Shown here: piece by piece, positions 21,492 to 38,343 of the stretch | Layout: every line of letters starts with the position of its first letter | Position numbering within the stretch: position 1 is the stretch's first letter | Translations under genes and position numbers: made by a program | Notes under the pieces: generated by a model | Told to the model about the DNA's origin: nothing | Seen by the model: the letters and a program-made list of their open reading frames with translations, nothing else | The model's database searches: none | NCBI GenBank assembly: GCA_965208325.1 | Contig: OZ242326.1 | Location: 1,408,001 to 1,472,000, forward strand | Direction of reading: 5' to 3' | DNA from: Candidatus Poribacteria bacterium | GTDB taxonomy: Bacteria > Poribacteria > WGA-4E > PCPOR2b | Length of the DNA: 64,000 nt

Positions 21492-24400
21492 TTAGTCTAC
21501 AATCAAAGTCTGAACCTTAGCCTCCAGGTCATGTTCCCAACTGCGCCCGGCGATTTCTCCCGCCGCGTTGATCAGGATGAACGGATGCCACCCGACAGCA
21601 TATCGTTCAAATGTCTCGCCTTTCGCGCCGTCGACCGTAGCTGGGCGGTCTAGTCCAATCGAGCATGACAGCAACTGTTCTGTAATGTGCCGTTTGACCG
21701 CCTCAATCTCGGAGGCGGCGGGACAGACGGCGACGCACACGAGGCCTTTTTCACCGTAAACCTCGTGCAAAATATTCAACAGGCGAATCCATTGTATATG
21801 ATTGGAACGGTTCAAATCCCAGAAATGTAGAACTATCGTCTTGCCTTCCAACTCTCCGATGGATACGGGTGAACCGGACAGCCATTTTGCAACCGCCAAC
21901 TCCGGCGCCGTTTTGTTCAGCAATGTATTGAAGCGATCTTCGGCGGACGCGGCGTATGACCGCTGCAACTGCTGCTCCGGGGTCGGCTCTGGTTTATTTT
22001 CGGACGGCGTTAGAGTTAAAACTAAATCGCGTTGATTCACCGCGATACTCTCAAAAATCTTGTGGTTACGATCAGCGCTGACAGAAATTGACACCATTTG
22101 GTCTTTGATGTGCTTCATTTCAAATTCGCCTAGCCCATTGGTACTAGTGCCGGTGTAGAAGTAACCGGAGACATCTTCTTCGGCTTCAACTCTTACTGAT
22201 GCCTGATTAATCGGCTTGCCATTGGCGTCCACGACTTTCCCAGCGAGGTAACCGTCCCCCTCGATCAACACTAGGTCGTGTCGCTGGTTGGCTTTTAGCA
22301 TCTTGAATCTATGGCGCGCGAACGCTGGGTGATGGGTTTGCAGATTAATGACGACAGCCATTAGTAGATTATCAAACCGAAAATTGCCATTTTCGTCGGT
22401 ATAGGTGTCCCAGCCTTGCGATTGATAGTGTGTATATACCCGTGCACCGTGTACCGGTTGACCTGAAGTATTGGTTATGCGTCCTTCAAGGTAGAACTGA
22501 CCGACCTCTGGCAACAAAATGAGATCCGCGATTTGGGTCATTTCCGCCGTTGCGGTAAATGTCTCGGTTGCCGTCGTCCAATACCCTTCTGCATTCGCAG
22601 AGATTGTGTACTCGTCGCCGACAATGAGTTCAATTTCCCGGTATCGTCCATCGCCATCTGTCACCGCGACGGTCGAAACTAACCCTATTTCCGACTGACG
22701 ATCGAAGTACAGCAGATTTATGTTCACTGACGGAATGGGTTCACCGGCGCGGTCGACTACTCGCCCGGCGACTTTTACGCGCTCATACGGTTCAATCAGA
22801 ATCTCAACCGACGCGTCCGGCTGGACTTCAACCTCCGCCGTTCCGCGCAATTCCAGCTCGCTATGTTCCGCTTTCAAGGCGAGTTTCTGCCCAATTCGTA
22901 ATCCGCGAACCGTAAATTCGCCCTGTTCATCCGACGTGTCGCACGCACTTAAAAAATTGCGCCCTTTTGCGATTATGACACCGGAGACCGGTTCCCCAGC
23001 TTTCGTCAATACTCGACCAGACAATTCCAATCCTTTGGAGAACTGAAAATCTACGACGACAGTTTCGCCCTCAACGACATCAACATACCGCGTAACCTGT
23101 CCGACATTCTGATAGTCTTGCGGGGCATAGGTTGAAACCAGCACGCGGCCAGGCGCAGCGCGGAAACTATAGATGCCGAATTCGTCAGTTGTTGAAACGT
23201 GATCTATCGGCCCAAACTCCGGACCCGGGCGGGCGGTGTCGTGAAACCTAATATGATGGTTCGCAACCGGTTCCTTTGTGTCCTGATCGGTCACCCGCCC
23301 AGAAATATGGCCGCCCCGAACCAGGGTCAAATTTATATTAGACATAATTTGTCCCTCAGCGACCTTAAAAAATTCGTTGGAGGCAGCCGTCCACCCTTCA
23401 GGTACCTCATCAAGATAGAGGTTGTACATACCGGGGGCGATGTTCTTCAGGAGGTAATTCCCATTCTCATCGACACTTACATGTTCCGCCCCCATTCCCG
23501 CGGTCAGTGGAGAGATGCGTAGAAGTGCAATAGTGGCGTTTTTGACCGGCGCGCCGGTATCTGCATAGCTGAGCCGCCCCTCAATCCGAGCCTCACGCTC
23601 CAGCCGAAATTCGAGTCCCGATGCGCCAGGCGGCACAGGGAAACGCATCTCCTCTGCATATCCTTGCCCATGAATAACGAGGCTTGCTGTCACGTCCGGC
23701 GGTAGCCTGCGGAGAACAAACTCGCCGTTCGTATCAGTATTGGTGGGGGGAATGATGGAAATAATGTCTAAGCCAAGGAATAAGTCCCATAGTATTGGGT
23801 TGCTAGAAAATGTGGCGTTACTATACAAGGATTTGATCCGTACTTCCGCATTCTGGATCGGAACGCCCGCCGTGTTTAGAACTCTTCCCGAAATGACCTC
23901 CTGCGTGCCGAGTTGGATTTCAACATCCATCTTGCTTTTTAGCGGGAGGTTCTGCCAACCGATTGCATGATTGGGGTGCGTGGCGACAATGGGGTGTGTG
24001 ATGACGATGTTATCCCGATCTTGCTCCCTGTCGTCGGGACGCTGGACTTCAAAGTGGAACGTGCCATCGGGTGCCGTGCGAGTGACAGTTTCGAAAGATT
24101 TGAGTTTTGACGGGTAAAAAAGTTCGGCATCCGCTACCGGCGCACCGTCACTGTCAACAACCCGGCCGGAGTAAATTAGTTTCTCGTCCTCACCCTTCGC
24201 TGCTACTGCGGGGTGTTGCGGCGTCGCATTCTTTACACCGCCATTACCTGAAACTGACCCTAGTTCAACTGACTCGCGGCTTCGCACCGTTGAACCGCGA
24301 TTGGAGACTCCCGGCGGACGCTTTCCCGACGGGGTCGGTATGCCCGCAATTAACGGACGAATTGCGATGGGAGCGGGTGTAATGAATGCGACCGGAATCG

Positions 24401-25184
24401 GCTGGCTCGTGTCTGACGGCGACAGCCCGATCTGGTTTCTTGGGGACACATTCGGCGAATCGCTTCGCTCTCCAAACAGTCCAACCAAAACACATAAAGC
24501 CATAATCAGCGAAATTAACGCTTTGCTTACTGACGTGCTACCCCACGTGAACCCCATGGTTGGAGATGGAATGTGGCGAATCTGCTCAATTAGCTGCATG
24601 AGGAATCCTCCTTTGAGTTTGCGGCTCTTTACGACTCTGCCGTAATGTTCAGACAACGCGCTGCCGAGCTGCAGCCGCGCACGACGCAACTTGCTCTTGA
24701 CAGTATTGACGGAAACACCGAAAAACTCTGAAATCTCCTTCAGCGAATAATCACCTGCATAGAACATCGACACGACGATCCGACTTTCGTCAGAGAGCTC
24801 TGACATTGCCTGCTCAAGATCTACCTGCCAATCCTGTGTTGGCACCGTGTGTTCAGGTTGAATCTGTAGCGAGTCGTCCACTGCCTGCTCCAGCGCAATC
24901 TCGTGCCGGCGTCTTCTCGTAACACGCACCAGCCAACGTTTGCATTCGTTGGACATGATTGTATACAGCCAGCTGCGGAAGAGATGCGGATGCCGCAGTT
25001 TTTGGAGATGGCGGAATGCCTTTAAAAAAACCTCTTGCGTAATGTCCTGCGAATCGGCTACGTTCCGCACTTTCTGATAGGCGTAGGTATAGACCATGTC
25101 CTGATACTTGTGTACGAGCACACCGAAGGCATCGCGATCCCCGGCGAGCGTTTGAGACACTAACTTTTCGTCGGCTGTATACAT
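21492..25184 (-). CDS. ECF sigma factor fused to a TM helix, 8 carboxypeptidase-regulatory-like repeats and a C-terminal thioredoxin-like domain (paralog 1)
   Basis: Sigma2 (GDRDAFGVLV..DITQEVFL..FRSWLYTI), sigma4 (SLKEISEFFGVSVNTVKSKLRRAR), TM ALISLIMALCVLVGLFG, 8 GRVxxxxGxPV repeats, APEL..GKTIVLHFW; ATG after AGGTGG. Confidence 0.9.
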   Translation of the reverse strand: MYTADEKLVSQTLAGDRDAFGVLVHKYQDMVYTYAYQKVRNVADSQDITQEVFLKAFRHLQKLRHPHLFRSWLYTIMSNECKRWLVRVTRRRRHEIALEQAVDDSLQIQPEHTVPTQDWQVDLEQAMSELSDESRIVVSMFYAGDYSLKEISEFFGVSVNTVKSKLRRARLQLGSALSEHYGRVVKSRKLKGGFLMQLIEQIRHIPSPTMGFTWGSTSVSKALISLIMALCVLVGLFGERSDSPNVSPRNQIGLSPSDTSQPIPVAFITPAPIAIRPLIAGIPTPSGKRPPGVSNRGSTVRSRESVELGSVSGNGGVKNATPQHPAVAAKGEDEKLIYSGRVVDSDGAPVADAELFYPSKLKSFETVTRTAPDGTFHFEVQRPDDREQDRDNIVITHPIVATHPNHAIGWQNLPLKSKMDVEIQLGTQEVISGRVLNTAGVPIQNAEVRIKSLYSNATFSSNPILWDLFLGLDIISIIPPTNTDTNGEFVLRRLPPDVTASLVIHGQGYAEEMRFPVPPGASGLEFRLEREARIEGRLSYADTGAPVKNATIALLRISPLTAGMGAEHVSVDENGNYLLKNIAPGMYNLYLDEVPEGWTAASNEFFKVAEGQIMSNINLTLVRGGHISGRVTDQDTKEPVANHHIRFHDTARPGPEFGPIDHVSTTDEFGIYSFRAAPGRVLVSTYAPQDYQNVGQVTRYVDVVEGETVVVDFQFSKGLELSGRVLTKAGEPVSGVIIAKGRNFLSACDTSDEQGEFTVRGLRIGQKLALKAEHSELELRGTAEVEVQPDASVEILIEPYERVKVAGRVVDRAGEPIPSVNINLLYFDRQSEIGLVSTVAVTDGDGRYREIELIVGDEYTISANAEGYWTTATETFTATAEMTQIADLILLPEVGQFYLEGRITNTSGQPVHGARVYTHYQSQGWDTYTDENGNFRFDNLLMAVVINLQTHHPAFARHRFKMLKANQRHDLVLIEGDGYLAGKVVDANGKPINQASVRVEAEEDVSGYFYTGTSTNGLGEFEMKHIKDQMVSISVSADRNHKIFESIAVNQRDLVLTLTPSENKPEPTPEQQLQRSYAASAEDRFNTLLNKTAPELAVAKWLSGSPVSIGELEGKTIVLHFWDLNRSNHIQWIRLLNILHEVYGEKGLVCVAVCPAASEIEAVKRHITEQLLSCSIGLDRPATVDGAKGETFERYAVGWHPFILINAAGEIAGRSWEHDLEAKVQTLIVD

Positions 25185-25234
25185 AATAACCACCTTATCC
25201 GAAAAACAAGTATGGAAGCCCTATTTGAATTACA

Positions 25235-25260
25235 TAGACACATCAAGCGAACCAGAGGTT
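25235..25260 (-). promoter_or_regulatory. Putative ECF sigma-dependent promoter (AAC-N18-GTCTA)
   Basis: Minus strand gcAACctctggttcgcttgatgtGTCTAt; the same motif and spacing occur upstream of all three ECF paralogs. Confidence 0.7.
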
Positions 25261-25289
25261 GCACCGCGTGGATAAAATAGTTGAAAAAC

Positions 25290-25418
25290 TCAAGGAATAG
25301 TACCAAAGAGATGTCTCAAACGATTGAATCCCGCTTCAATGAGAATATAAATCACGCAACCGCGACAGGGGATAGGAAGGCTGTGTTTATGGGACAACTA
25401 CATCAAAGGTGGGGCTAA
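25290..25418 (+). pseudogene. Remnant of a DUF433 3' end and DUF5615 (PIN-like toxin) 5' end
   Basis: 25290-25352 aligns without gaps to 31921-31983 (48/63 identical by hand count); ORF 25311-25418 MSQTIESRFNENINHATATG... Confidence 0.6.
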
Positions 25419-25784
25419 TAGCGGACGGAGATGAAAGACAAACCAAATTTGCGATAACTAGGCAACGGGGCAGATCCTGTCCATGGCGCAAACTCTCTTC
25501 ATGTTTAGATGGACTACACCGGAATCGTCTATTATGGACCGGCAGACTGCAATTAGATGAATTATCCTGCGGCTAATCTTGATGCCGGTAGTTTTCGAAT
25601 CGGATGAAATGGAATAATAAGGTGGGGTTTTTACCAGAGAGGTGTTTACATAGATTCAGGCCGCAAATATGCCAATTGCAGCACCGCGGCTGCAGCAGGT
25701 AGAGATACGCATTCGACCCAACCTACACCGCTGCAATTCTGATAGATTAGCGAAGCGAATCAGGATTTAGCAGTGATCGGCAAT

Positions 25785-27026
25785 TTACTTTGTTCGTGTC
25801 GTCTTCTCGGGAGTGCTGTCCTTTTCGATGATAGCAATGTGCGGCAGGCGCCACTCTATGCTTGCAGGACCCACGTCGAACCATTCACCCGATAATCCCA
25901 TCGAAACGAAATCTTCCTCGCCCCGGTCTTTATCGTGCGGTTCATGGGGCGCCCAGTTTGTGAATGTCACCGGCTCACCGTTCGCCCAAACCCATTCCCC
26001 TTCGTTCGCATAATCCGTCAGTCCAATCCAGCACCGATTTGGTCCAAAGGTTTTTGATATCCAGTCCTGCTCTGCTGCATCGTTGATTGCAACGAGATAC
26101 CCACCTTCGGCAGCGGCTTGAGTGTTGGCTTCATCCCAACTCTCGCTACTAATTCGCTTGTACGCGTGCCCATTTGCTGGATTCACCACCCACGCTGCGC
26201 CGACGCCCCGTGGTGACGTTGACACTTCCGCAGAAACTTCGACTCGACCAGTGGGACCTTCAGGCCAATTCGGAAGTCTGTCGAGCGCGAAAACCAAATC
26301 TTCTCTGTCTTCTCCTTGTTTTAGCAGGAAAGGATCTGCTGACGCCGAAAGCCTGTGATAGTTCACCGTCATTGTGTAGATTGCGGGTTCATCAACGAAG
26401 TAATTAAAATAACCGTCAGTGTCAGTCTCGTTCGAGGAACTTGAGCTACCGCTACCCGTCCCGTCGGGCGTACGGTGGTTTACGCTGACATTAATCCTCG
26501 CACTGGAAAGCGGGGTGCCATTGAGAAACACAATGCGTCCCCGAATGTAATTCCGCAATTTCACTCTGACTTCGACATTCTCAACGTGCACGTCCGGATT
26601 AATGGCGAACACGATTCCCTGCCAAGGCGAATACTCGTGCCGGTAAATGGTCAGTGTCGCCACCCTTACGGAAATGATTTCGCCGCTGGTCCCGGACGGA
26701 TGATAAAACTTGGTGGCCGGTGTTAATCGGACTTTTGCCGGCGGGATGTTTTTCATAGAAAAACGTCCCATTTCGTCAGAGTGCGATTCTGAAAGTGTGA
26801 TGAAGGTTCCTTCAACTGATTCAAGCGAAAACGGTAAAAGGGATAGCCCAAATCCCGCAACCGGATTACCTTTTAAATCAACAACACGGCCGGACAGTGT
26901 AGAAGTACTGTCCAGAGCCATACCCTGCAACGATGCGGCGAATGTAAATACCATTATCCCAACAAGTAGCCGCAGGTTCTCTCGCCTAAACGCGGCGTAT
27001 AAACACCTTAAATGTAACCAGTTCAT
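25785..27026 (-). CDS. Secreted protein with 2 carboxypeptidase-regulatory-like repeats and a C-type lectin domain
   Basis: ATG after AGGAGG; hydrophobic signal; NGHAY, SWDEA, YLVAINDAAEQDWI, WIGLTD, GEPVTFTNWAPHEP, WFD. Confidence 0.85.
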   Translation of the reverse strand: MNWLHLRCLYAAFRRENLRLLVGIMVFTFAASLQGMALDSTSTLSGRVVDLKGNPVAGFGLSLLPFSLESVEGTFITLSESHSDEMGRFSMKNIPPAKVRLTPATKFYHPSGTSGEIISVRVATLTIYRHEYSPWQGIVFAINPDVHVENVEVRVKLRNYIRGRIVFLNGTPLSSARINVSVNHRTPDGTGSGSSSSSNETDTDGYFNYFVDEPAIYTMTVNYHRLSASADPFLLKQGEDREDLVFALDRLPNWPEGPTGRVEVSAEVSTSPRGVGAAWVVNPANGHAYKRISSESWDEANTQAAAEGGYLVAINDAAEQDWISKTFGPNRCWIGLTDYANEGEWVWANGEPVTFTNWAPHEPHDKDRGEEDFVSMGLSGEWFDVGPASIEWRLPHIAIIEKDSTPEKTTRTK

Positions 27027-27264
27027 GGAAGATGCCTCCTTCGGAATGTTGAATGCGACCGAGGACGAATCCCTCTGTGAATGACCCAAATCGGTCTTTT
27101 GACGAAGCCAATTAGGGTTTGATTTCTTGACAACCCGGTTTTTTTACCGGGGAATGGCTAGACGATGGCGTTGCCGCTCACGTATCAAACAAGCTGTAAA
27201 CGCTGTTTCTAGCTGATATACGCTTAGCAATCACTTTGCGTTCAAGGCGTCAAATTATCGAGTG

Positions 27265-28728
27265 TCAACGTCGCTTTTTCCCCGGCGATTCACGTCTTTT
27301 CGTTTCGGAGTCATTACGCCCTTCAAAGGATTCATGTCGTTTTTCATTGAGATTGCTCCGGTCTTTTTTACGCTCATCATCATCATGAAGTATTTCAGGT
27401 TCATCCGGCAAATTTAGATTAGAAGTCGGGTCATCCGTATCTTCCAACGACTCCAGCAACCTATCCAACTCCTTCGCCTCGACCCCGCCGGGGAATTTCC
27501 AATCCTCAGCTTGCTTCATTTGGTTTTCCAATTCGGGTGGGACGATTGGCGCCGGGATCGGCTGTTCCAAACCCTCCAGAAATTCCGCCATCTCTAGCGA
27601 CGGTGCGGCATGGCGCGGTGCTGCCACAGGCGCGGAATCGTCCACTGCCGAGTCGGATGCGGAGGTCCAAAGTGATGAACGGGATACAGGCTTCGGTTCG
27701 GCAACGTTCGCAGGTTGCGAATCTGTTCCTGACGGAAGCACTACGTCGGACTCGGAACGGGCGATCTCCGGTCTATCATCATCAAATATGCCGGCAAAAT
27801 TCCCCCATACCTTCGCCATTCCTCGCCTCGGCGCATCAGCAGGTTTGCCGTCTGGACCGATAAAGCCAATCTTCACATGTTCGGGAAGTTTCTTTGTGAA
27901 AGGGAATGGGGTATGTAAGTACTCTTGTATAGCACCAACATCGTATGACTCGCCCACAGCAGGAAAGTGTAGCTCACCGATACTCCCGTCCGAGTTAATT
28001 TCATAGTAGGTCGTATCGGCTCTGAGCGGAAAGCGTGTCCCATCTTTGGCTCTGGCAATCGTGACAAATTTTCCTTCATTCCATTGTTGTGCGAAAGTTG
28101 GGTCTTTTAATGCTTCTTTCACATAATAGTGCGTCTCCAGAAAATGCTGAATTCTAGTTTCTTCAAACTGTGCCGACGACGTGTCCACCGGCAGCCCCAT
28201 ACGTTCTAGCACACTGTTTTTGTAATCGGCATCATTTCCAAACAGGGGTTGCTCGAAAAACTGCTGCTTTGAATGTAGCAGATTGAACCGATACATGAGG
28301 AATGAATTGTATTCCGCACCGTTCTCGATTAGCAGGCCTTTATCCAGCAACATCTGCAGGAATTCTGCACGCGGATAGGCTTGGTCGACATTTGCTAAGT
28401 CGATGCCGCTGAAATTAATCGCCTGCGACTCAACCCATGTGTCAAAATTAGTGTCATGCGCTTCCATAAGGGCTTCGACAGATTGCGGGTTTTGAAATGA
28501 GGTTGAATCGGAAATGTGACGCATTCGAGTCAACTCCTCGTCCGCCCCTTTGACGACAGCTGTCCACCAATAGTCCCGCAAATAGTTGCTTATCGCAATC
28601 TCTTCTGGTGAACCATCGCTCTGGCTAAAAACAACGTGCTGTCGATGTAACAGTGCAGCGATAACAGCCGCCGCAACAACTCCCAGACCAATCATTACAA
28701 TCTTCCACTTTGACAAGGAAACCAACAT
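27265..28728 (-). CDS. Hypothetical membrane-anchored protein
   Basis: 487-aa ORF with an RBS, N-terminal TM segment and a low-complexity acidic/charged C-terminus. Confidence 0.75.
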   Translation of the reverse strand: MLVSLSKWKIVMIGLGVVAAAVIAALLHRQHVVFSQSDGSPEEIAISNYLRDYWWTAVVKGADEELTRMRHISDSTSFQNPQSVEALMEAHDTNFDTWVESQAINFSGIDLANVDQAYPRAEFLQMLLDKGLLIENGAEYNSFLMYRFNLLHSKQQFFEQPLFGNDADYKNSVLERMGLPVDTSSAQFEETRIQHFLETHYYVKEALKDPTFAQQWNEGKFVTIARAKDGTRFPLRADTTYYEINSDGSIGELHFPAVGESYDVGAIQEYLHTPFPFTKKLPEHVKIGFIGPDGKPADAPRRGMAKVWGNFAGIFDDDRPEIARSESDVVLPSGTDSQPANVAEPKPVSRSSLWTSASDSAVDDSAPVAAPRHAAPSLEMAEFLEGLEQPIPAPIVPPELENQMKQAEDWKFPGGVEAKELDRLLESLEDTDDPTSNLNLPDEPEILHDDDERKKDRSNLNEKRHESFEGRNDSETKRRESPGKKRR

Positions 28729-28953
28729 GATAGGTGCTCCTTTCTCCTAATGCTAGATTGTTGGTGAAGATACCAAATGATTAAACCTAAACACCAACCC
28801 TTCAGGCGTTTTTTTTACTCATTCAATCTGGCTATTAGGATGGTTGTTCGTGAAAGTGTGTTTGGATTTACACATTGTAGCGCTGTGAACACTCAGTAAT
28901 TCGATCGTTAATTACCATGCGGTTATTTTTCACCGAATTGTGTAAATTTAAGG

Positions 28954-31143
28954 TTATTCGTTCTCATTGGGAGGCGGCGAGGCGAAACCTTGTCTTTCGA
29001 TGATAGCCTTCTGGGTCATCCGCCACTGTGGGCTTTCCGGTCCAACATCAAACCATTGTCCATTCGGACTGAGACCCATGAAGACGTAATCTTCTTCACC
29101 GAGCGGCGACTCGGTCGGTTCATTGGGCGCCCAGTTCGTGTAAGTAGCCGGTTCGCCGCTGGACCATCGCCATTCCCCCGCCTTTTCGATATCAGTTAGT
29201 CCAATCCAATAGGGCTCGGTACCAAAAACTTTCACCAGCCAACTCTGCTCCGAGGCGTCGTTAATCGAAACCAAGTATGCATCCTCGGTAATCGCTTTCG
29301 CTTGAGCATCTTCCCAACTTTCACAATGAATGCTTCGATAGGCGTGACCATTTTGAGGATTCATCACCCAAGCTCCATCTCGGTCCGGCGGCGCGGCGCT
29401 ATCCGGTGTTGGCTCAATGGGAATTGGCGGGCTGTCAAGCGTTATGACCAAATCATCATGCCGTTGACCGGTTTCGAGAGCAAATTGCTCCGACGTCGCC
29501 GATAAGCCTTGAAATTCAACAGCTACCGCGTAAAATCCTGGCTGAGGCGGATTCACATAGTGCACAAAGTATCCCGCATCGTCCGTGCGGGGCAATCCTC
29601 CGCTACTACCCGTGCCTTCCCCATCAAATGTACGCCATCGCACGCTAATCAGAACTTTCGCCTTGGCAAGCGGTGTGCCGTCGGTGAATACAACCTGACC
29701 CCGAATGCGCATCCGCGGTTTAACTACAATTTCAAAATTATCAATGTGTGTCCCTGGCTCAATGGTAAATGTAATGCCACCGTGAGGGGGCGGTTGCCGG
29801 GAGTCCGCATGAAAAGTCATCGCGCCAGTATCTATGGACAAAACCTCCGCGTCTACAAAATTGTCTTGGTCGTAGCTGTGCGGAGGCATGTCATCGCTTG
29901 TTACAGGATTGGGCTGTGCCATGAACTGGAGAGGCCCGGGTTTGATGCCAGAAATCGAAAACCGTCCCTCTTCGTCCGTGTCCGATTTGAACGTGTACGG
30001 CTGTGCGTCCCTCCTGAACCAATCATAACTGAACATTGGCATGATTTTGCCGTCAAATGACATCAGCGGTCCAACAGCTATGGGGAATCCCGCGATTGGA
30101 TTGCCATCTGTGTCAACCACACGGCCCGATAAGGCAATTTTATCGGAACCGCTCACCGATGCAGCAGTTGTGAATTGCGGACTCGGGGATTTGGCACCCC
30201 CAGCCACGGCAGTGGTTTCTCGGTAAACTGGCTCGGAGTTCGGCTCCACTGAGGCGCGGTTGGCGACCGCCAATGGATGCTTTCCCGACGTGGCAGGAAT
30301 ACCCGTAATTGACGGGCGTGCGGAAAACGGAGGCGAAGCAAGTAACACGACCGGGATCGGGCGGTTCGCGTCTGGCGGCGACAGTGCAGTTTGATTGCCT
30401 GCGTACGCTTTCGGTGAGCTGTCTCGTGCTCCGATAAGTCCAATCAGGATGCACAATGCCGTAATCAACGAAAATACCGTCTTGCTAACAGTTGCACTGG
30501 TCCACGTGAACCCAACTGTTGGCGGTGGGATATGGCGTACCTGCTCCATAAGTTGCATGAGGAATCCTCCTTGGAGTTTGCGGCTCTTCATGAATCGACC
30601 GTAGTGTTCAGACATCGCGGTGCCGAGTTGCTGCCGTGCTCGATGTAACTTGCCCCGGGCGGTGTTCACGGAGACGCCGAGAAATTCTGAGATTTCCTTC
30701 ATCGAACAGCCACCCATGTAGAACATCGACACCGCCACGCGATTATCGTCCGGGAGCGCAGAGATTGCACGCTCTAAGTCCACCTGCCAACCTTCTGTTG
30801 CGGCAGTGTGTGCGGGTTCAATCTGTAGGGCATCGTCTGTAGCGTCGTCCAACGCAATTTCGCGCCGGCGTGTTTCCGTGGCCCGCGCCAGCCAGCGGTT
30901 GCACTCGTTGGACATGATTGTATACAGCCAACTTCGGAACCGATGCGGGTGCCGCAGTTTGCAGAGATGCCGATATGCCCGGAGGAAAACCTCCTGCGTG
31001 ATGTCCTGCGAGTCGGCTTCGTTCCGCACCTTCTGAAAGGCATAGGTGTAGACCATGTCCTGATACTTATGCACGAGCACACCGAAGGCGTCTCGATCCC
31101 CCGCAAGGGTTTGAGACACTAAGTTTTCGTCGGGTGAATTCAT
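28954..31143 (-). CDS. ECF sigma factor fused to a TM helix, 2 carboxypeptidase-regulatory-like repeats and a C-type lectin domain (paralog 2)
   Basis: Sigma2 and sigma4 motifs as in paralog 1; TM TVFSLITALCILIGLIG; lectin YWIGLTD..TNWAPNEP..WFD; ATG after GAGGTG. Confidence 0.9.
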   Translation of the reverse strand: MNSPDENLVSQTLAGDRDAFGVLVHKYQDMVYTYAFQKVRNEADSQDITQEVFLRAYRHLCKLRHPHRFRSWLYTIMSNECNRWLARATETRRREIALDDATDDALQIEPAHTAATEGWQVDLERAISALPDDNRVAVSMFYMGGCSMKEISEFLGVSVNTARGKLHRARQQLGTAMSEHYGRFMKSRKLQGGFLMQLMEQVRHIPPPTVGFTWTSATVSKTVFSLITALCILIGLIGARDSSPKAYAGNQTALSPPDANRPIPVVLLASPPFSARPSITGIPATSGKHPLAVANRASVEPNSEPVYRETTAVAGGAKSPSPQFTTAASVSGSDKIALSGRVVDTDGNPIAGFPIAVGPLMSFDGKIMPMFSYDWFRRDAQPYTFKSDTDEEGRFSISGIKPGPLQFMAQPNPVTSDDMPPHSYDQDNFVDAEVLSIDTGAMTFHADSRQPPPHGGITFTIEPGTHIDNFEIVVKPRMRIRGQVVFTDGTPLAKAKVLISVRWRTFDGEGTGSSGGLPRTDDAGYFVHYVNPPQPGFYAVAVEFQGLSATSEQFALETGQRHDDLVITLDSPPIPIEPTPDSAAPPDRDGAWVMNPQNGHAYRSIHCESWEDAQAKAITEDAYLVSINDASEQSWLVKVFGTEPYWIGLTDIEKAGEWRWSSGEPATYTNWAPNEPTESPLGEEDYVFMGLSPNGQWFDVGPESPQWRMTQKAIIERQGFASPPPNENE

Positions 31144-31206
31144 AGCACACACCTCAACCGAAATGATACACCACAACCCCGCAACAGCCCAGACAAAACT
31201 ACTTAT

Positions 31207-31232
31207 TAGACCCGCTGCGCGGATAAAAAGTT
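31207..31232 (-). promoter_or_regulatory. Putative ECF sigma-dependent promoter (AAC-N18-GTCTA)
   Basis: Minus strand atAACtttttatccgcgcagcggGTCTAa. Confidence 0.7.
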
Positions 31233-31631
31233 ATGCCTTAGCGAAAAAAATTCGGGTGTGGCTGCACCTATCGCAGCGGGTCACCTTGCCCCAACGCACC
31301 GATGATAAGCGAGGCGTCTTGCCCTACATTCCTTATGAATCATCGAATCACGGCGCGGATAAAGAGTTACTCCGCAAAAAAATATTTCCGAGCGTGTTCC
31401 ATCTTCAATCCAAACAATAAACAGTTGAAAACCTCGGCTGCCGCGTGTAAAATGAATAGGACCAATCATTGATTCCACGCACGATTAAGGTCTAATGTGA
31501 TCGGCAAATTACGATAGCATCGCAGTAATTATTTTACTCCAAGAAACTCTAAAGGAGTTGAAAAGAAATTAAACAACCTCATCCAAATTAGACCCACACC
31601 ACCCAGAATGGTTGACATCAGGAGGTTTAAA

Positions 31632-31958
31632 ATGGGAAAAATCAAACCGCATATTGAAATCACACCCGGAATTTGCGGCGGTAAACCTCGCATCGCCGGA
31701 CACCGGATTCGGGTGCAAGACATCGTGATATTGCACGATAAGATGGGCAAAGACCCATATGAGATTGCCAATGACTATCCTTCCATTACATTGGCCGATG
31801 TCTATGCCGCACTGGTTTATTATTTGGACAACCTAGAAGAAATTCGCCAAGACATTGTAGAGTCGGAGAGATTAGAGGATGAGATGAGTGCCAAGACCCG
31901 TTCCCCACTGATGCAGAAAATCAAGGAATGGAATCAAAATCATGCCTCAAACGATTAA
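31632..31958 (+). CDS. DUF433 domain protein (putative antitoxin)
   Basis: IEITPGICGGKPRIAGHRIRVQDIV...EIANDYPSITLADVYAALVYY; ATG after AGGAGG. Confidence 0.9.
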   Translation: MGKIKPHIEITPGICGGKPRIAGHRIRVQDIVILHDKMGKDPYEIANDYPSITLADVYAALVYYLDNLEEIRQDIVESERLEDEMSAKTRSPLMQKIKEWNQNHASND

Positions 31959-32022
31959 ATTCCGCCACGATGAGGATGTTAATGCGGGGAGTCAAAGAAG
32001 ATTGTGGGTGTCGTTTACCTAG
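31942..32022 (+). pseudogene. Truncated DUF5615 (PIN-like toxin) remnant
   Basis: Overlaps the DUF433 stop; MPQTIKFRHDEDVNAG resembles the (I/L)xFxLDE N-terminus of the usual DUF433 partner; stops after 26 codons. Confidence 0.55.
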
Positions 32023-32093
32023 ACAAGAAACTAGAATTGAAAAAGATGGTAGAATTGCCTTTTAATCCGTTTTGGAATTGATTGATGGACAGG

Positions 32094-35000
32094 TCAATCC
32101 GCAAGCAGCGTTTGAATCTGAGCCTCGAGATCATGCCCCGAAGCACGCCCGGCAATCTCTCCCGCAGCGTTAATTAGGAGGAACGGATATCGCCCGATGG
32201 CGTATTGATCAGATGTCTCGCCTTTCGCGCCGACGACCGCTGTTGGGCGGTCTAAGCCGACTGAGTACGACATCGACTGTTCCGCGATGCGTCGTTCGAC
32301 CCTCTCGCCCATTTCTGTAGCCGGACAAATTGCGAGGCAGACAATCCCTTTTTCTCCATACGCCTCCTGCAAGAGATTCAATAGCCGTACCCATTGGACA
32401 CGGTCGTCGACGTAATTTAAATCCCAGAAATACACGATAATGGTCTTTCCTTTCAACTGTCCGATGGATGCGGGCGGACCGGACAGCCACTCTGCAACCG
32501 CCAAATCGGGTGCAGGTTGGCCCACCAAGGATTTGAATCGTTCGTGAGCTGCTTCGTAATATGACCATTGCGCCTCTTGCTGTGCTTGCTGCTCTGGAGC
32601 TGTTTCGGGTCGCGGTTCGTTGGGCGTCAGTGTCAAGACCAGATCACGCTGATTCACCGCGATACGGTCAAAACTTTTGTAATCCTGATCGGTACGGATT
32701 GCGATTGACACGAACGGGTCATTGATATGCTTTAGCTCAAACGCGCCCTGTGAGTTGGTGTAAACGGCATGAAATAGTTGACCGGTAGTGTAATCTTCTT
32801 GGGGTTCTACCGTCACGCTCACGTTCTCAATCGGGCTGCCTTTTGTGTCCACGACTTTCCCAGCGATATAACCGACCGCTTTGACTAGTACCAGGTCGTG
32901 CCGCTGGTTGGTTTTCAGAATCCTAAATGTATGGAATGCGTACTCCGGGTGGTTAATATGCAGTTGCATGACGACAGCCATGGAAAGATTGTTTAACCGA
33001 TAATCGCCGCTGTCGTCAGTTTGTGTCATCCAGTGTTGCGACCGGTGGTTTGTTTCGAGGTATGCGCCGCCGACCGGCTCCCCAGTATTGTCGGTAACGC
33101 GTCCCTCTATGAAATACGGGTCGGTCGGAGCTGGCAGCAGGATGAGATCCGATACTTGCGTCATCTGCGAATCAGGGGTAAACATTCCGGTTTCGGCTGG
33201 CAAATATCCGTCTGCGTCCGCACGTATGACATACTCATCTCCCACGATTAATTCAATATCCCGGAAGCGTCCACCACCATCTGTCACCGTGACTGTCGAA
33301 CCGAGCCTTGGGTCATCCTGCCCGTCCCACTGGTGCATTAGAAAAACATTTACCGACGGGATGGGTTCGCCGCGGCGGTTAAGCACACGCCCGGAGACCT
33401 TTACTCGATCGTAACGTTCCATCTGGATTTCAACCGATGCACCTGGCTGCACTTCAACCTCGGCCTTCCCGCGTAATCCCAATTTGCTGTGTTCCGCTTT
33501 GAGGACGAGTTTACGTCCGGCCTCCAGTCCAGCCACGGTGAATTCACCCTGTTCGTCAGTTTTGTTGCCGTACTCCCTGAACCAATCTGACACGTCGGTA
33601 ATATTCGTAATTTTCGCCCCTGAGACAGGTTTACCCGCCGATGTCAAAGCTCGGCCGCGCAGTTCAATCCCTTTCGAGAACTGAAAATCAGCCGTGACCG
33701 TCTCAGATTCGACGACAACCACCTGTTTACTAACTAGTCGAATACCCCCCAGATAACCATTCGGTGCACTGGTGTAGACAAGGGCACTACCAGGTGCGGC
33801 ACGGAGGCGATAGACGCCGGTTTCATCTGTGTGCGTCCCGTGAACCGATGCTTGGGATTGCGGCCGAGCGGCGTCGTGAAAGCTGATATGGTGGTTTGCG
33901 ATGGGATCGCCTGTGTCTCGGTCGGTCACGCGTCCGGTGATAAACCCACCCTGTACCAAGATTAGGTCTACCCCAGATACGGTTTGACCCTCTACGACCA
34001 CAATGTGTTCTTTTGCTACTGCTGTCCACCCGTCAGGTCCCTCATGAAGAAAGAGGTTGTACGTACCGGGAGCGATGTTTTTCAGAAGGTATTTCCCGTT
34101 TGCATCAGTATTTGTTCGCCCCCATCCGTCCGTAGGATGGATACCCTCAAGCAAGACCGCCGCGTTTTTGACAGGCTCGCCGGTACCTGCGAAGCTGAGG
34201 TTTCCCTCAACCCTGCCCTCGCGCTTCAGTCGAAACTCTAGCCCCATTGTACCGACCGCCACACTGAAATGCAGTTCCATTGCATATCCTGGTCCCTGGG
34301 TCACAAGATTCGTTGTCGCACCTAACGGAAGTCCGCGGAGCACAAACTCCCCGTCCGCGTTCGTTTTAGCGGGTGAAATGGGCATAGCGTCGATTCCCAA
34401 CCCTACTCCGTGTTCTCCCGTTGTCAAGTCGACAGTGACCAAGTATTGAATGCGCGCCTCCGCGTTTTCAATCGGCTCGCCTGCTTCATTCAGAATTTTG
34501 CCTGAGATAATCGCAGGCGCTCCGAGTTGAATCTCAACATCAGACGTGCTCTCGGGTTGGAGCTCCTGCCAACCGATTGCATGATTGGGGTGCATTGCGA
34601 TTATGTGCACACGATCCCGTTTTTTGGGTTCGGGACGAAGAAACTCAAAACTGAACGCCCCATCCGCCCCCGTACGGGTGACAGACTTGGACGGTTTGAG
34701 CCTCATTGAGTAAAACACCTCGGCATCTGCTACCGGCGCGCCGCCGCTGTCAACGACCCGACCGGAGTAGACAAGTTTTTCGCCCTCGTTTCCCGCTGCA
34801 GTTGCCGCGAGTTTCGGCACGGTATTCTTCCCACCGCGGTTCGTCGAACTCAATCTTATGTCATTTGATTGGGTGATTTGCCGTGTGGGTGCGCGGTTGG
34901 CGGTAGCCAGCGGGTGCTTTCCCGAAGGGGTTGGAATACCTGAAACCGAGGTACTCGCTGCGTATTGATCCGGTGTGTAAAACGCCGCCTCAATTGGCCA

Positions 35001-35783
35001 TCGGGTCGCATCTGACCGCGTCGGCCAAAGCTGGTTTCCTGACAACTCTGTTGATGTGTGGATTCGTCCTCCAATCAATCCAATTAAGACGCACAATGCC
35101 GTAATTAGCGAAAATAGAGTTTTGCTCACCGTTGTGCTGCTCCAAGTGAAAGCCATAGCTGGTGTTGGGATGCGGCGAATTTGCTCCGTTAACTGCATGA
35201 GAAACCCTCCTTTGAGTGTGTGGCTCTTCAAGTATCTGCCGTATCGTACAGACATCGCGCTGCCGAGTTGCTGGCGCGCCCTATACAACTTACCCTTTAC
35301 GGTGTTCGCGGAGACACCGAGAAATTCCGAGATTTCTTTCAGCGAGCATTCGCCCATATAAAACATCGCCACCGCCACCCGATTATCATCGGAGAGCGCA
35401 GAGATTGCCTGTTCAAGGTCAATCTCCCAGCCCGGTGTGGGGACAGTGTGCGCGGGTTCAACCTGCAGGGCATCGTCCGCAGCGTCCTCTAGCGCAATTT
35501 CACGCTGCCGTTTTTTGGATACCCGTTTCAGCCATCGGTTGCACTCGTTCGCCATGATTGTATACAGCCAACTTCGGAACCGGTGCGGATGCCGCAGTTG
35601 ATAGAGGTGACGGTACGCCCGCAGGAAGACCTCTTGGGAGATGTCCTGCGAATCGGCTTCGTTCCTCACCCTTTGGAATGCGTAGGTGTAGACCACGCCC
35701 TGGTACTTGCGCACGAGCACGCCGAATGCGTCTCGATCGCCCGCAAGAGTCTGAGACACCAATTTTTCGTCGGATGAATACAT
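32094..35783 (-). CDS. ECF sigma factor fused to a TM helix, 8 carboxypeptidase-regulatory-like repeats and a thioredoxin-like domain (paralog 3)
   Basis: Collinear with paralog 1 over its full length; TM TLFSLITALCVLIGLIG; APDL..KGKTIIVYFW. Confidence 0.9.
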   Translation of the reverse strand: MYSSDEKLVSQTLAGDRDAFGVLVRKYQGVVYTYAFQRVRNEADSQDISQEVFLRAYRHLYQLRHPHRFRSWLYTIMANECNRWLKRVSKKRQREIALEDAADDALQVEPAHTVPTPGWEIDLEQAISALSDDNRVAVAMFYMGECSLKEISEFLGVSANTVKGKLYRARQQLGSAMSVRYGRYLKSHTLKGGFLMQLTEQIRRIPTPAMAFTWSSTTVSKTLFSLITALCVLIGLIGGRIHTSTELSGNQLWPTRSDATRWPIEAAFYTPDQYAASTSVSGIPTPSGKHPLATANRAPTRQITQSNDIRLSSTNRGGKNTVPKLAATAAGNEGEKLVYSGRVVDSGGAPVADAEVFYSMRLKPSKSVTRTGADGAFSFEFLRPEPKKRDRVHIIAMHPNHAIGWQELQPESTSDVEIQLGAPAIISGKILNEAGEPIENAEARIQYLVTVDLTTGEHGVGLGIDAMPISPAKTNADGEFVLRGLPLGATTNLVTQGPGYAMELHFSVAVGTMGLEFRLKREGRVEGNLSFAGTGEPVKNAAVLLEGIHPTDGWGRTNTDANGKYLLKNIAPGTYNLFLHEGPDGWTAVAKEHIVVVEGQTVSGVDLILVQGGFITGRVTDRDTGDPIANHHISFHDAARPQSQASVHGTHTDETGVYRLRAAPGSALVYTSAPNGYLGGIRLVSKQVVVVESETVTADFQFSKGIELRGRALTSAGKPVSGAKITNITDVSDWFREYGNKTDEQGEFTVAGLEAGRKLVLKAEHSKLGLRGKAEVEVQPGASVEIQMERYDRVKVSGRVLNRRGEPIPSVNVFLMHQWDGQDDPRLGSTVTVTDGGGRFRDIELIVGDEYVIRADADGYLPAETGMFTPDSQMTQVSDLILLPAPTDPYFIEGRVTDNTGEPVGGAYLETNHRSQHWMTQTDDSGDYRLNNLSMAVVMQLHINHPEYAFHTFRILKTNQRHDLVLVKAVGYIAGKVVDTKGSPIENVSVTVEPQEDYTTGQLFHAVYTNSQGAFELKHINDPFVSIAIRTDQDYKSFDRIAVNQRDLVLTLTPNEPRPETAPEQQAQQEAQWSYYEAAHERFKSLVGQPAPDLAVAEWLSGPPASIGQLKGKTIIVYFWDLNYVDDRVQWVRLLNLLQEAYGEKGIVCLAICPATEMGERVERRIAEQSMSYSVGLDRPTAVVGAKGETSDQYAIGRYPFLLINAAGEIAGRASGHDLEAQIQTLLAD

Positions 35784-35848
35784 AACACCCACCTATCCAA
35801 AACAGGAGAAAAATCAGCGCCGCAATGAAAATGGGCGCAACTATTATC

Positions 35849-35874
35849 TAGACACACTTCGTGGATTGGAGGTT
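35849..35874 (-). promoter_or_regulatory. Putative ECF sigma-dependent promoter (AAC-N18-GTCTA)
   Basis: Minus strand atAACctccaatccacgaagtgtGTCTAg. Confidence 0.7.
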
Positions 35875-36206
35875 ATGCTGGATAGAAAAAAAATTTGGCG
35901 GGCAATCTCCGCACAGGCGGATCATCTGTCATTAGACGTTGAAACCTGATTGGAAACTTGAAGGAGTATCCTAATTTGAGCAATGGTTCTTGAAAGTGCC
36001 AGTAAATGACAAGGGCGTTTACGTTCATTCTCACCGGGAGCGGGGAAATTTGCCGCGCGAGAGATGATTGCAGCCCATCATTGCGAAGACTGAAGAAGCC
36101 AAGGTGTGCGGCAGCATTTCATGCTCGGAGCGTTTTATTCAACGGTTGGAGAGTTTTTAATTCTCTCCAACCGAAATTTGAAGGAATAGGACTATGCGCA
36201 GCAACT

Positions 36207-37102: not shown

Positions 37103-38326
37103 TTACGGTTCAATCAATTTGTGGAACAGTATTTCGCCATCAACGATGCGTTTTATGACGACGCTTTTCGATGTGTGCCGGTTTTCGTCGTAGCCAGAGA
37201 TGAAGGTTGCTCCACTGTAATTCTCCGTGGCTGCAATCTGGTCGCGGATCATCGACGGTGTCAGATCGTCCGTACGGCGCATGGCGAGCGCGACCAGCCT
37301 GATGGCATCATATCCGCCCGCTGCGCCTCCATCGGGCGTTTCATCAAACATTGCGGTGTACGCAGCCACGAATTGGTAGGCATCTTCGCCCAAATCACTC
37401 GGTTCCGCCTCGGCGGAAAAACCGCTGCTATAGAAACTCCCGTCAACAGCCGCTCCGGCTGTGGCAATCAACGCGGTGTTGTCCCAGCTATCGCCGCCCA
37501 AGAAGATTGCCGTTATACCAAACTCATCCTTTGCTTGCCGAACTGCGAGCGGGACTTCAGGGATGAAGCCGGTGCTAAAAACCACGTCCGGTGACGCATC
37601 GGCAATTGCGGTTAGTTGCGCGGTGAAATCGGAAGTTCCTGCCGTGTAAAATTCATTAGCCGCAATCACGCCGCCCTGAGCGGTAAAGTTGTCAATGAAG
37701 GTTTGCGACAATCCCTCCGAATAAACATCTTCCCAGTGCGTCAGCACCGCCGCGGTGTTTGCCTGTAAATCTTGCATGGCAAACTGAGCCATCACCTTCC
37801 CTTGGAAATCGTCTGTGAAAGCCGCCATGAACACAAAATCACCCGCAGCCGCAACCGCCGGATTGGTCGCGGAGGTTGCCATCATCGGTATCGAGTTGCG
37901 CTGCGCAATTTCCCCGACCACCACGGCGTAGGTAGATCGGTTCGGGCCGACAATTGCAGAAACGCCCTCATCGAAAATCAGTTCTTCCGCAAGCGCTGCA
38001 ACATATTCGGTGTCGTTTATATCCTCGCTAATGAGGCGCTGTGTCGGAATGTCACGAGGAACGAGTTGAATTGGTGTGCCCCGAACGCCGCCCGACTCGT
38101 TCAGTTGCAGCGTTGCTAATTCCGCACCGTATCGGCTGTTATTTCGGTTTGGCGAGGTGTACAAGAATCCAATTTTAATCGCAGATTCTCCGTCATCCGG
38201 GGGCGGAGGCGTAAGCAATTCTTGGAACTGCTCGCAACCCGCAAACAGGGTGCTCATTAAGATTAATGGAATCAAAAACCGACTATTTAATCTGGATGCA
38301 GTCAGTCGGCTGCGTCGATCTGTCAT
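37103..38326 (-). CDS. Branched-chain amino acid ABC-type substrate-binding lipoprotein (LivJ/LivK-like)
   Basis: Lipobox LFAGC; AIVGP, SATNP, TDDFQG, DFTAQL, LGGDSWD, GYDA. Confidence 0.88.
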   Translation of the reverse strand: MTDRRSRLTASRLNSRFLIPLILMSTLFAGCEQFQELLTPPPPDDGESAIKIGFLYTSPNRNNSRYGAELATLQLNESGGVRGTPIQLVPRDIPTQRLISEDINDTEYVAALAEELIFDEGVSAIVGPNRSTYAVVVGEIAQRNSIPMMATSATNPAVAAAGDFVFMAAFTDDFQGKVMAQFAMQDLQANTAAVLTHWEDVYSEGLSQTFIDNFTAQGGVIAANEFYTAGTSDFTAQLTAIADASPDVVFSTGFIPEVPLAVRQAKDEFGITAIFLGGDSWDNTALIATAGAAVDGSFYSSGFSAEAEPSDLGEDAYQFVAAYTAMFDETPDGGAAGGYDAIRLVALAMRRTDDLTPSMIRDQIAATENYSGATFISGYDENRHTSKSVVIKRIVDGEILFHKLIEP

Positions 38327-38343
38327 TCAAGTTCTCCTTGCCG

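Follow-up and report, generated by a model that had tools for sequence, protein, structure and literature searches.

The 64,000-nucleotide stretch of DNA analysed here (the window; positions 1,408,001 to 1,472,000 of contig OZ242326.1, assembly GCA_965208325.1) comes from a Candidatus Poribacteria bacterium. It contains three co-oriented genes, A, B and C, all on the minus strand, each of which joins an extracytoplasmic function (ECF) sigma factor, one transmembrane (TM) segment and an ectodomain in a single reading frame. At the junction behind the sigma domain, each gene carries a Shine-Dalgarno (SD) sequence and an in-frame ATG, from which a sigma-free protein could be made. The explanation that we favour, with little more than even confidence in it as a whole, is an autoregulated gene with two nested in-frame products. 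The open reading frames (ORFs) extend over 21492-25193 in A (1233 residues), 28954-31176 in B (740 residues) and 32094-35792 in C (1232 residues), and the SD-preceded ATGs at 25184, 31143 and 35783 are likely to be the true starts. The features of the three genes, with SD energies given for the duplex with the genome's own 16S tail, are as follows.

32094..35783, minus strand: gene C; sigma2-sigma4, two linker helices, TM helix, linker, eight CarboxypepD_reg repeats and a CxxC-less ResA/TlpA-like domain
35196..35211, minus strand: internal SD and in-frame ATG (codon 199) of gene C, -12.3 kcal/mol; would start a 1034-residue sigma-free product
35061..35117, minus strand: predicted TM helix of C, residues 226-244 (hydropathy 2.16; helix in the AlphaFold2 model)
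28954..31143, minus strand: gene B; the same sigma-TM-linker cassette, about two CarboxypepD-like repeats and a C-type lectin domain with non-canonical sugar motifs
30556..30571, minus strand: internal SD and in-frame ATG of gene B, -11.2 kcal/mol; would start a 534-residue product
30433..30489, minus strand: predicted TM helix of B, residues 230-248 (hydropathy 2.18)
21492..25184, minus strand: gene A; architecture as in C, to which it is 57% identical over the whole protein
24597..24612, minus strand: internal SD and in-frame ATG of gene A, -11.8 kcal/mol; would start a 1035-residue product
24474..24530, minus strand: predicted TM helix of A, residues 222-240 (hydropathy 2.39)

A probable translation start at the sigma junction

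An earlier note on this DNA had recorded a shared GGFLMQL segment. The segment is present, but it had been read as a protein motif and the internal translation start had been overlooked: in A, B and C, GGFLM is encoded by AGGAGG, seven bases and an ATG in frame. We scored junctions in a window of 35 codons around the end of sigma4, counting as positive those with an in-frame ATG and an SD of -8 kcal/mol or stronger against this genome's own 16S tail. All 13 long ECF genes of this genome (G000) were positive, an in-sample count because the window was chosen after viewing those junctions. The background rate, measured on 21,441 internal windows in 1,805 ORFs of at least 300 residues, was 1.85%. 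Other windows of the same 13 genes passed in 8 of 245 cases, and N-terminal windows, which include the true starts, in 24.5%. Applied to other loci, the same window covered 176 sigma cores, 153 of them with an extension of at least 100 residues, and 117 of the latter passed (82/115 at new loci in other genomes and 35/38 in the relative loci L001-L030); because the profile used to find these loci takes in the junction, and because the loci are kin, the counts overstate independence. In a metagenome scan 7 of 79 sigma cores had extensions, and the SD-ATG pair was found in 4/4 KEExM-like extensions and in 0/3 unrelated ones. None of the 40 records listed, out of 65 in a plasmid search, was a Planctomycete fusion.

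All three reading frames occur across the SD, which is translated as GG, as EE or KE, or as RR, and the start offsets among the fusions are about -7, +1, +7, +10, +13 and +17 codons. The internal SD is stronger than that of the sigma start in 136 of the 153 fusions, and the short form may therefore be the bulk product. The junctions are also among the least structured 7-12% of 70-nucleotide windows in each gene. As far as can be read from the sequence, these genes have what distinguishes nested in-frame two-product genes, a conserved SD and in-frame start beyond the needs of the protein.

SD-like sequences can also act as translational pause sites. In all TM-bearing members the SD lies 5-40 codons ahead of the TM segment, where a pause might allow the sigma domain to fold, or the chain to be targeted, before the TM segment emerges, the methionine being kept for packing. 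We consider this very unlikely, however. The TM-less fusions at 2412364, 3096245 and 483013 of G000 carry the same SD and ATG, a pause does not require an ATG at initiation spacing, and sigma-less descendants (see below) start at the site. A programmed frameshift releasing free sigma was also considered and rejected, as inspection of the codons by eye revealed neither a slippery heptamer shared by A, B and C nor an off-frame stop present in all three. A separate observation concerns L045:6959-8236 (G000:C1:3097958-3099238), an ECF gene with most of sigma2 deleted and leucine-rich repeats fused to it, in which the SD-ATG scores -11.9, as in its intact neighbour.

Probable selection on the internal start

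The relatives were sorted into subfamilies by motif rules, which left 60 of 156 rows unclassified. In the GGFLM subfamily (45 rows) the first SD glycine is encoded by GGA in 41/44 rows and the second by GGC in 0/45. At the seven other conserved glycine columns the top codon accounts for 36-67%, and just 2 of the 34 four-fold columns attain 90%. Among the 43 rows of the KEExM subfamily, the first SD glutamate is GAG in 35/42, compared with a background of 34%. In the alignment the GGFLM helix corresponds to the LxxxFTxxIxExI helix of KEExM proteins, and the KEExM ATG is found 13-14 codons further upstream. A start at the upstream site was found in 4 of 42 GGFLM genes, and a start at the GGFLM site in none of 44 KEExM genes. 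The different position in a homologous helix suggests that the start was rebuilt, since a fossil would stay put or decay. The ancestral start was probably at the KEExM site and later shifted to the GGFLM site. This direction is taken from the wider spread of KEExM (families f1, f2, f3, f5 and f6, with GGFLM in f1 and f2), because the tree, from a quick search, does not settle the branching order between the GGFLM clade and two KEExM clades.

This ATG is the exact starting point of five sigma-less GGFLM genes, in some of which the tail of sigma can still be seen upstream; in two further genes sigma is broken and the frame downstream of it is intact. The ratio of nonsynonymous to synonymous substitution rates (dN/dS) was 0.22-0.31 for the five sigma-less genes and 0.24-0.28 for fused ectodomains; this purifying selection indicates that the site serves as a start, at any rate once sigma has been lost. 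Three sigma-less descendants have a signal-peptide-like N-terminus and have the linker deleted. The sigma parts have dN/dS of 0.08-0.18, so the long form matters too, and the junction with the TM segment has 0.10-0.31. Judged by codon usage and descent, selection on the internal start is highly probable, and it is fairly likely that both products are made. Three further sigma-less genes, at G000:C1:2545302 (plus strand), 2628604 (minus) and 3997146 (minus), start at a KEExM-type SD-ATG, two of them with sigma remnants upstream.

Putative promoters and regulon

An ECF-type promoter with -35 TAACCT or CAACCT and -10 GTCTA lies 44-82 bases upstream in 31 of 38 genes of the GGFLM subfamily, 7 of its 45 genes having been dropped because no start was parsed. 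A, B and C share one such motif.

35847..35877, minus strand: putative ECF-type promoter of gene C; -35 TAACCT, -10 GTCTA; matrix score 26.5
31205..31235, minus strand: putative ECF-type promoter of gene B; matrix score 27.3
25233..25263, minus strand: putative ECF-type promoter of gene A; matrix score 19.9

Some members of other subfamilies have different upstream motifs, as expected for autoregulation. When G000 was scanned with a matrix trained on these promoters, A, B and C included, scores of at least 17 were reached at A, B and C alone; shuffled sequences gave 1-2 matches. A scan with a loose consensus gave 10 gene-proximal matches, including A, B and C, against 7.2 expected. Thus no external regulon was detected in G000 by the matrix or the loose consensus, though there may be a divergent or degenerate one; a scan for sigma-70 promoters and terminators stayed below the shuffle means. 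As the sole strong matches are the promoters of A, B and C, the detectable regulon is the array itself, which fits a sigma-free isoform as the output. On the evidence of the motif, autoregulation is probable.

The earlier note had proposed one product per gene, with varied inputs acting on a shared external regulon; the SD-ATG pair would then be a fossil of the fusion. The promoter type is probably shared, as proposed, whereas the external part of the regulon finds no support in the scans. Consistent with a single product are the motif common to A, B and C, the loss of the SD in some relatives, and the description of IutY and SCO4117 as single products in the passages available. We nevertheless regard this model as improbable in view of the synonymous constraint, the differing start positions in homologous helices, the sigma-less descendants under selection, external promoter sites not above chance, and the missing CxxC of the thioredoxin-like domains (see below).

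Tether and proposed inhibition and release of the sigma domain

Pfam identified Sigma70_r2 and Sigma70_r4_2 in A, B and C, and TIGR02937 was above its cut-off in all three. With sigma2 and sigma4 alone, and neither sigma3 nor sigma1, the proteins classify as ECF (group 4) factors. TM segments were called as Kyte-Doolittle peaks of at least 1.6, together with a helix in the AlphaFold2 model; each protein has a single peak (values 2.16-2.39, residues 222-248). ORFs, Pfam matches and hydropathy thus agree with the earlier description of three co-oriented sigma2/sigma4/TM genes, and the TM helix placed after sigma4 is seen both as a peak in all three proteins and as a helix in the model. The single-frame fusions likewise support a membrane-tethered, one-component design, and tethering to the membrane is very likely. 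No anti-sigma Pfam match was found among the other scanned ORFs of at least 100 residues in 21492-35874 (a secreted lectin paralogue, an orphan with no Pfam match and DUF433), in agreement with the claim that a separate anti-sigma gene is absent. The N-terminal cassettes of A and B are 72-77% identical to that of C. The sigma4 motifs GVSVNTVKSKL, GVSVNTARGKL and GVSANTVKGKL are present as quoted, but their near identity, which had been thought surprising, is explained by recent paralogy, and a similar consensus is found in the distant KEExM subfamily. A linker said to be rich in serine and proline is present, though its enrichment is moderate (Ser/Pro/Thr 32-36%).

Between sigma4 and the TM segment lies a linker segment of 45 residues. 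An AlphaFold2 model built from 105 aligned rows (mean predicted local distance difference test score, pLDDT, 85.3) contains two confident helices after sigma4 (pLDDT 86-94) and the TM helix. The whole core of the model matched anti-sigma-bound SigW (Z 14.7, root-mean-square deviation (rmsd) 4.4, 156 aligned) and anti-sigma-bound CnrH (Z 13.5, rmsd 3.7, 149 aligned), with an rmsd of about 27 to holoenzyme forms. In class I and II anti-sigma domains a helix directly ahead of the TM segment binds sigma2, and CnrY, which belongs to class II, exerts its inhibition through a pair of helices that contact sigma4 and sigma2 respectively (PMC7406223). The closed pose of the model, together with this mode of inhibition, suggests that the linker helices are a built-in minimal anti-sigma. 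A complex prediction for the sigma core and the post-sigma4 segment scored 0.18, against a mark of 0.32. A PDB match of the linker to a Notch3 TM peptide (E 0.031) was weak and was taken as compositional. The genome has an M50 protease gene. By analogy with IutY, we lean modestly towards release of sigma by intramembrane proteolysis.

If two products are made, the short form might instead be a regulator in trans, an anti-sigma or a hetero-oligomer partner that recaptures sigma or sets a threshold. The KEExM short form begins before both linker helices, like a translationally coupled anti-sigma gene, and two-isoform endolysins form heteromers (PMC9430671). On the other hand, the start lies inside the second helix in the GGFLM subfamily and after it in the GGxxxM subfamily, so that these short forms lose most or all of the candidate anti-sigma segment. 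Moreover, sigma-less descendants persist under selection, including the three with a signal-peptide-like N-terminus and no linker. A regulatory short form therefore appears unlikely.

Several points weigh against two nested products in an autoregulated gene, besides the in-sample count, the kinship of the loci, the self-trained promoter matrix and the open fork in the tree. Of the 115 new fusions, 33 are below threshold and 24 remain without a strong site when the window is widened and any start codon is allowed; the SD can therefore be lost. Codon fixation is not confined to the SD, as 11 of 48 two-fold columns of the GGFLM subfamily are also at least 90% fixed, and packing could be the reason why the methionine, part of an amphipathic helix, is conserved. 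No solved anti-sigma in the PDB and no Pfam family matched the linker sequence, and the closed pose may stem from the training of AlphaFold2 on sigma/anti-sigma crystals. M50 proteases occur in all 14 control genomes. Finally, another ECF could read these promoters.

Ectodomains and module exchange

Pfam found eight CarboxypepD_reg stretches in each of A and C, the number given by the earlier note; of the two repeats that it gave for B, one passes and the second is visible only as a related Dioxygenase_C match. The C-terminal domain of A and C is ResA/TlpA-like (profile match to 4nmu, E 4.9e-12). The thioredoxin-like fold had thus been recognized correctly, but CxxC was present at the aligned ResA position in 0/22 such domains, so the suggested redox input is unsupported and redox sensing by this fold was rejected. 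The pseudo-thioredoxin (window 21552-21914, and the matching end of C) has a near-invariant cysteine, often in CxxIC, in the second strand rather than at the catalytic CxxC.

The C-type lectin reported in B is borne out as a fold by a Lectin_C match (E 4.2e-12), and 152 PDB sequences were matched. The canonical motifs of Ca-dependent, sugar-binding C-type lectins are EPN/QPD and WND. B has EPT and WFD at the canonical EPN and WND positions, a glycan input to B being no more than possible, and among the nine lectin sequences examined EP is kept in all nine, with EPN/QPD or WND in none.

The B ectodomain shares 51% identity with a stand-alone secreted protein encoded at C1:2451186 and 41% with the product of the neighbouring gene D. 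B and C are 62-87% identical up to residue 240, 40-42% through the linker and 15-32% after residue 360. When C is compared with its orthologue in L001, the sigma part shows a synonymous divergence (dS) of 0.33 and the ectodomain one of 0.82. Module exchange among ectodomains is thus supported by sequence comparison, and the view that the sensor modules are interchangeable holds. The swap point would be the first CarboxypepD repeat, at about residue 345, downstream of the internal start; a swap point at the internal start itself was ruled out at this locus by the B-C identity that continues through the linker.

Ten further long ECF genes in G000 have as partners WD40, PD40, BNR/sortilin, Reg_prop, CarboxypepD with AhpC, or unknown domains, and seven of them have a TM segment. 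Genomes G036 and G019 each gave about 40 matches with long open frames. Among 19 representatives scanned, 7 had no match, and further partners were Kelch, laminin G, PKD, ankyrin and SAICAR synthetase. The last is found at L026:13493-15019 (plus strand), where the sigma cassette is in frame with PurC (PF01259, E 7e-55) five codons past the internal ATG; this may be a real capture, with the enzyme dependent on the internal start, or an assembly chimera. G000 also encodes, at many loci, a large family of secreted WD40 propellers with the N-terminal motif W-x-L-P-E-G-A-x-x-R-L-G-K-G, and the same module stands behind some sigma cassettes. L047 (G000:C1:3756772-3757365) and L048 (3964501-3964857) are split or truncated ECF genes, one of them a near-copy of the N-terminus of a BNR-propeller fusion at 1400596.

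An alternative is fortuitous capture, in which a mobile sigma cassette lands in frame before unrelated genes, the partner alone, made from a start of its own that it has retained, matters and the fusion is incidental. Duplication of sigma2-sigma4 with capture of downstream genes has been proposed for Planctomycetes (PMC7671368); the in-frame SAICAR synthetase fusion would fit it, and non-TM partners bring starts at other offsets. However, the sigma and junction parts are under strong purifying selection (dN/dS as above), and the travelling cassette includes linker helices, TM segment, spacer and promoter; it is about 345 residues long, compared with sigma2-sigma4 alone in Planctomycetes. We consider capture of this kind highly improbable.

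A syntenic tandem array

Short-read contigs of run X1, which may be the source sample of the assembly, span all three fusion junctions with no differences. Contigs of run X4, from another sample, cross the A and C junctions, and those of run X5, from another study, cross the C junction with 187 differences and no gaps. As independent contigs cross the junctions in frame, the fusions are not assembly errors, and it is virtually certain that the joining of sigma to ectodomain is real. The other features of the array are as follows.

31608..31958, plus strand: DUF433 gene, divergent from B and a frequent neighbour in relatives
27265..28728, minus strand: gene E, an orphan with an N-terminal hydrophobic anchor and an acidic tail (Pfam, hydropathy)
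25785..27089, minus strand: gene D, a sigma-less CarboxypepD and C-type lectin gene with a signal-like N-terminus
25286..25352, plus strand: remnant of a DUF433 3′ end upstream of A, repeating 31917-31983 with 76% identity

The 30 close relatives, at 59-93% identity, all bear the name Ca. Poribacteria. In relatives, 1-3 copies lie beside the same methyltransferase and two substrate-binding genes, and L029 has a single copy within the same flanks. Upstream of A, the remnant duplicates the end of the DUF433 gene that precedes B, which marks the unit of tandem duplication. From gene order, the locus is a syntenic tandem array. The G+C content at third codon positions is 0.56-0.57, within the 10-90% range of the genome (0.47-0.61); a horizontal origin was rejected on the ordinary composition and the synteny in relatives, and the term 'island' used in the earlier note does not apply.

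Gene E has no Pfam match and no paralogue in the genome, and its very acidic tail is of low complexity. Its orthologue is present in L001 and not at the same place in L002; E may be co-transcribed behind B. In all four runs, positions 26151-26196 in the lectin domain of gene D attract a very high depth of contigs with many loose ends, a sign that these communities contain many related lectin genes. Next to these sigma genes, 12 of 30 Poribacteria loci have a lone DUF433 gene for which no toxin partner is evident (window 31608-31958 and 25286-25352). The conserved upstream anchor across relatives, at 37103-39564, consists of two tandem substrate-binding-like genes (LivK type by inspection) and the methyltransferase.

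Comparison with known systems

The architecture is of a known kind, seen in IutY, ECF52 and ECF57, and the nested start is the unusual feature. On the features compared below, rather than on group hidden Markov models, A, B and C fall outside ECF57, ECF48, ECF52, ECF53 and the IutY type. A search of result listings and abstract openings, with most subscription journals outside its range, brought up no work that deals with ECF fusions of Poribacteria or with internal starts in fused ECF genes, and the word Poribacteria has no occurrence in the available part of the PMC7826278 supplement.

IutY of Pseudomonas putida is an ECF243 sigma/anti-sigma hybrid freed by Prc and RseP (PMC5411451, PMC8999054), and according to PMC8999054 it is the only fused ECF with experimentally shown release. 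Like A, B and C it has a cytosolic ECF sigma, one TM segment and an extracytoplasmic domain. Unlike them it serves iron-starvation cell-surface signalling in the response to aerobactin (PMC5411451, PMC8999054), and its available passages mention no internal start (PMC8999054). A, B and C differ in their repeat, lectin or pseudo-thioredoxin ectodomains and in forming an expandable array. The IutY type is marked by a FecR-like periplasmic anti-sigma domain and by a TonB-dependent receptor as partner; Pfam found no FecR domain in A, B or C, and no such receptor was found among the flanking ORFs scanned, a subset of those in the window.

ECF52 (SCO4117), ECF48 and ECF53 are confined to Actinobacteria and have a zinc finger between sigma and the TM segment (PMC7826278 supplement). 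They resemble the present genes in combining sigma, a TM segment, a proline-rich region and a carbohydrate-binding domain, with autoregulation suggested and proteolytic release proposed. The genes described here are Poribacterial rather than Actinobacterial, and no HxxxCxxC zinc finger was found in the sigma4-TM segment, nor any zinc-finger Pfam match. SCO4117 has 29 putative target promoters, whereas here only the genes' own promoters were found.

ECF57 is confined to Planctomycetes, with about two TM segments and no conserved promoter (PMC7826278 supplement). ECF57 and other Planctomycete ECFs share with A, B and C the expansion, the TM extensions, unrelated C-terminal partners such as WD40, and CarboxypepD-like proteins nearby. 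A, B and C differ from ECF57 in having one TM segment by hydropathy, a conserved promoter and an internal start, and in being Poribacterial. ECF57 also has a fully conserved cysteine pair, one in sigma2 and one in sigma4 (PMC7826278 supplement). Here a sigma2 cysteine is at least 90% conserved and a sigma4 cysteine is present in B and C and replaced by tyrosine in A; these residues may or may not correspond to the ECF57 pair.

The CnrH-CnrY pair has two short helices before a TM segment, as here, and the model core superposes on CnrY-bound CnrH; CnrY is, however, a separate protein, and no sequence match between it and the linker was found. In two-polypeptide phage endolysins an in-frame internal start at the domain junction has been shown experimentally (PMC9430671). 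Those genes have the same nested in-frame ORF, which here is read from sequence alone, but they encode phage enzymes with no membrane tether, not transcription regulators.

Proposed model and its meaning

In the two-product model that we favour, one reading frame joins sigma2-sigma4, the single TM segment and the ectodomain, and the SD and ATG observed at the junction would start a sigma-free product, for which the same hydrophobic helix would provide the signal or anchor. The two helices that separate sigma4 from the TM segment would, in the long form, act as a CnrY-like minimal anti-sigma, and the membrane tether would keep sigma off RNA polymerase. A cue at the ectodomain (ligand, damage or clipping) might then lead to site-1 and RseP-type site-2 cleavage, as in IutY, and to free sigma. 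The freed sigma would transcribe mainly the array's own promoters, common to the three paralogues, and would raise the output of surface proteins, the ectodomain being both sensor and product.

A broader reading, a Poribacteria-wide single-gene feedback module for surface proteins, is possible, and as a whole we offer it tentatively. Promoter, sigma, built-in anti-sigma helices, internal start and TM segment would form a portable cassette, grafted on to secreted eukaryote-like domains (lectin, WD40, PD40, sortilin/BNR, Kelch, laminin G, PKD) in up to about 40 copies per genome. The short isoform would be the working surface protein, and the rare long isoform would serve as its own gauge and activate its own promoter family alone. 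The second start would be important enough to have been rebuilt at a new position in the same helix.

The available literature treats membrane-tethered ECF fusions as single-product proteins. If the two-product model is true, the stoichiometry of a two-gene sigma/partner system would be kept inside one ORF, and annotation, proteomics and knock-out designs would overlook what is probably the more abundant product. For the symbiont, these genes would be a route to regulate a large and changing set of host-facing eukaryote-like proteins, with one feedback loop for each.

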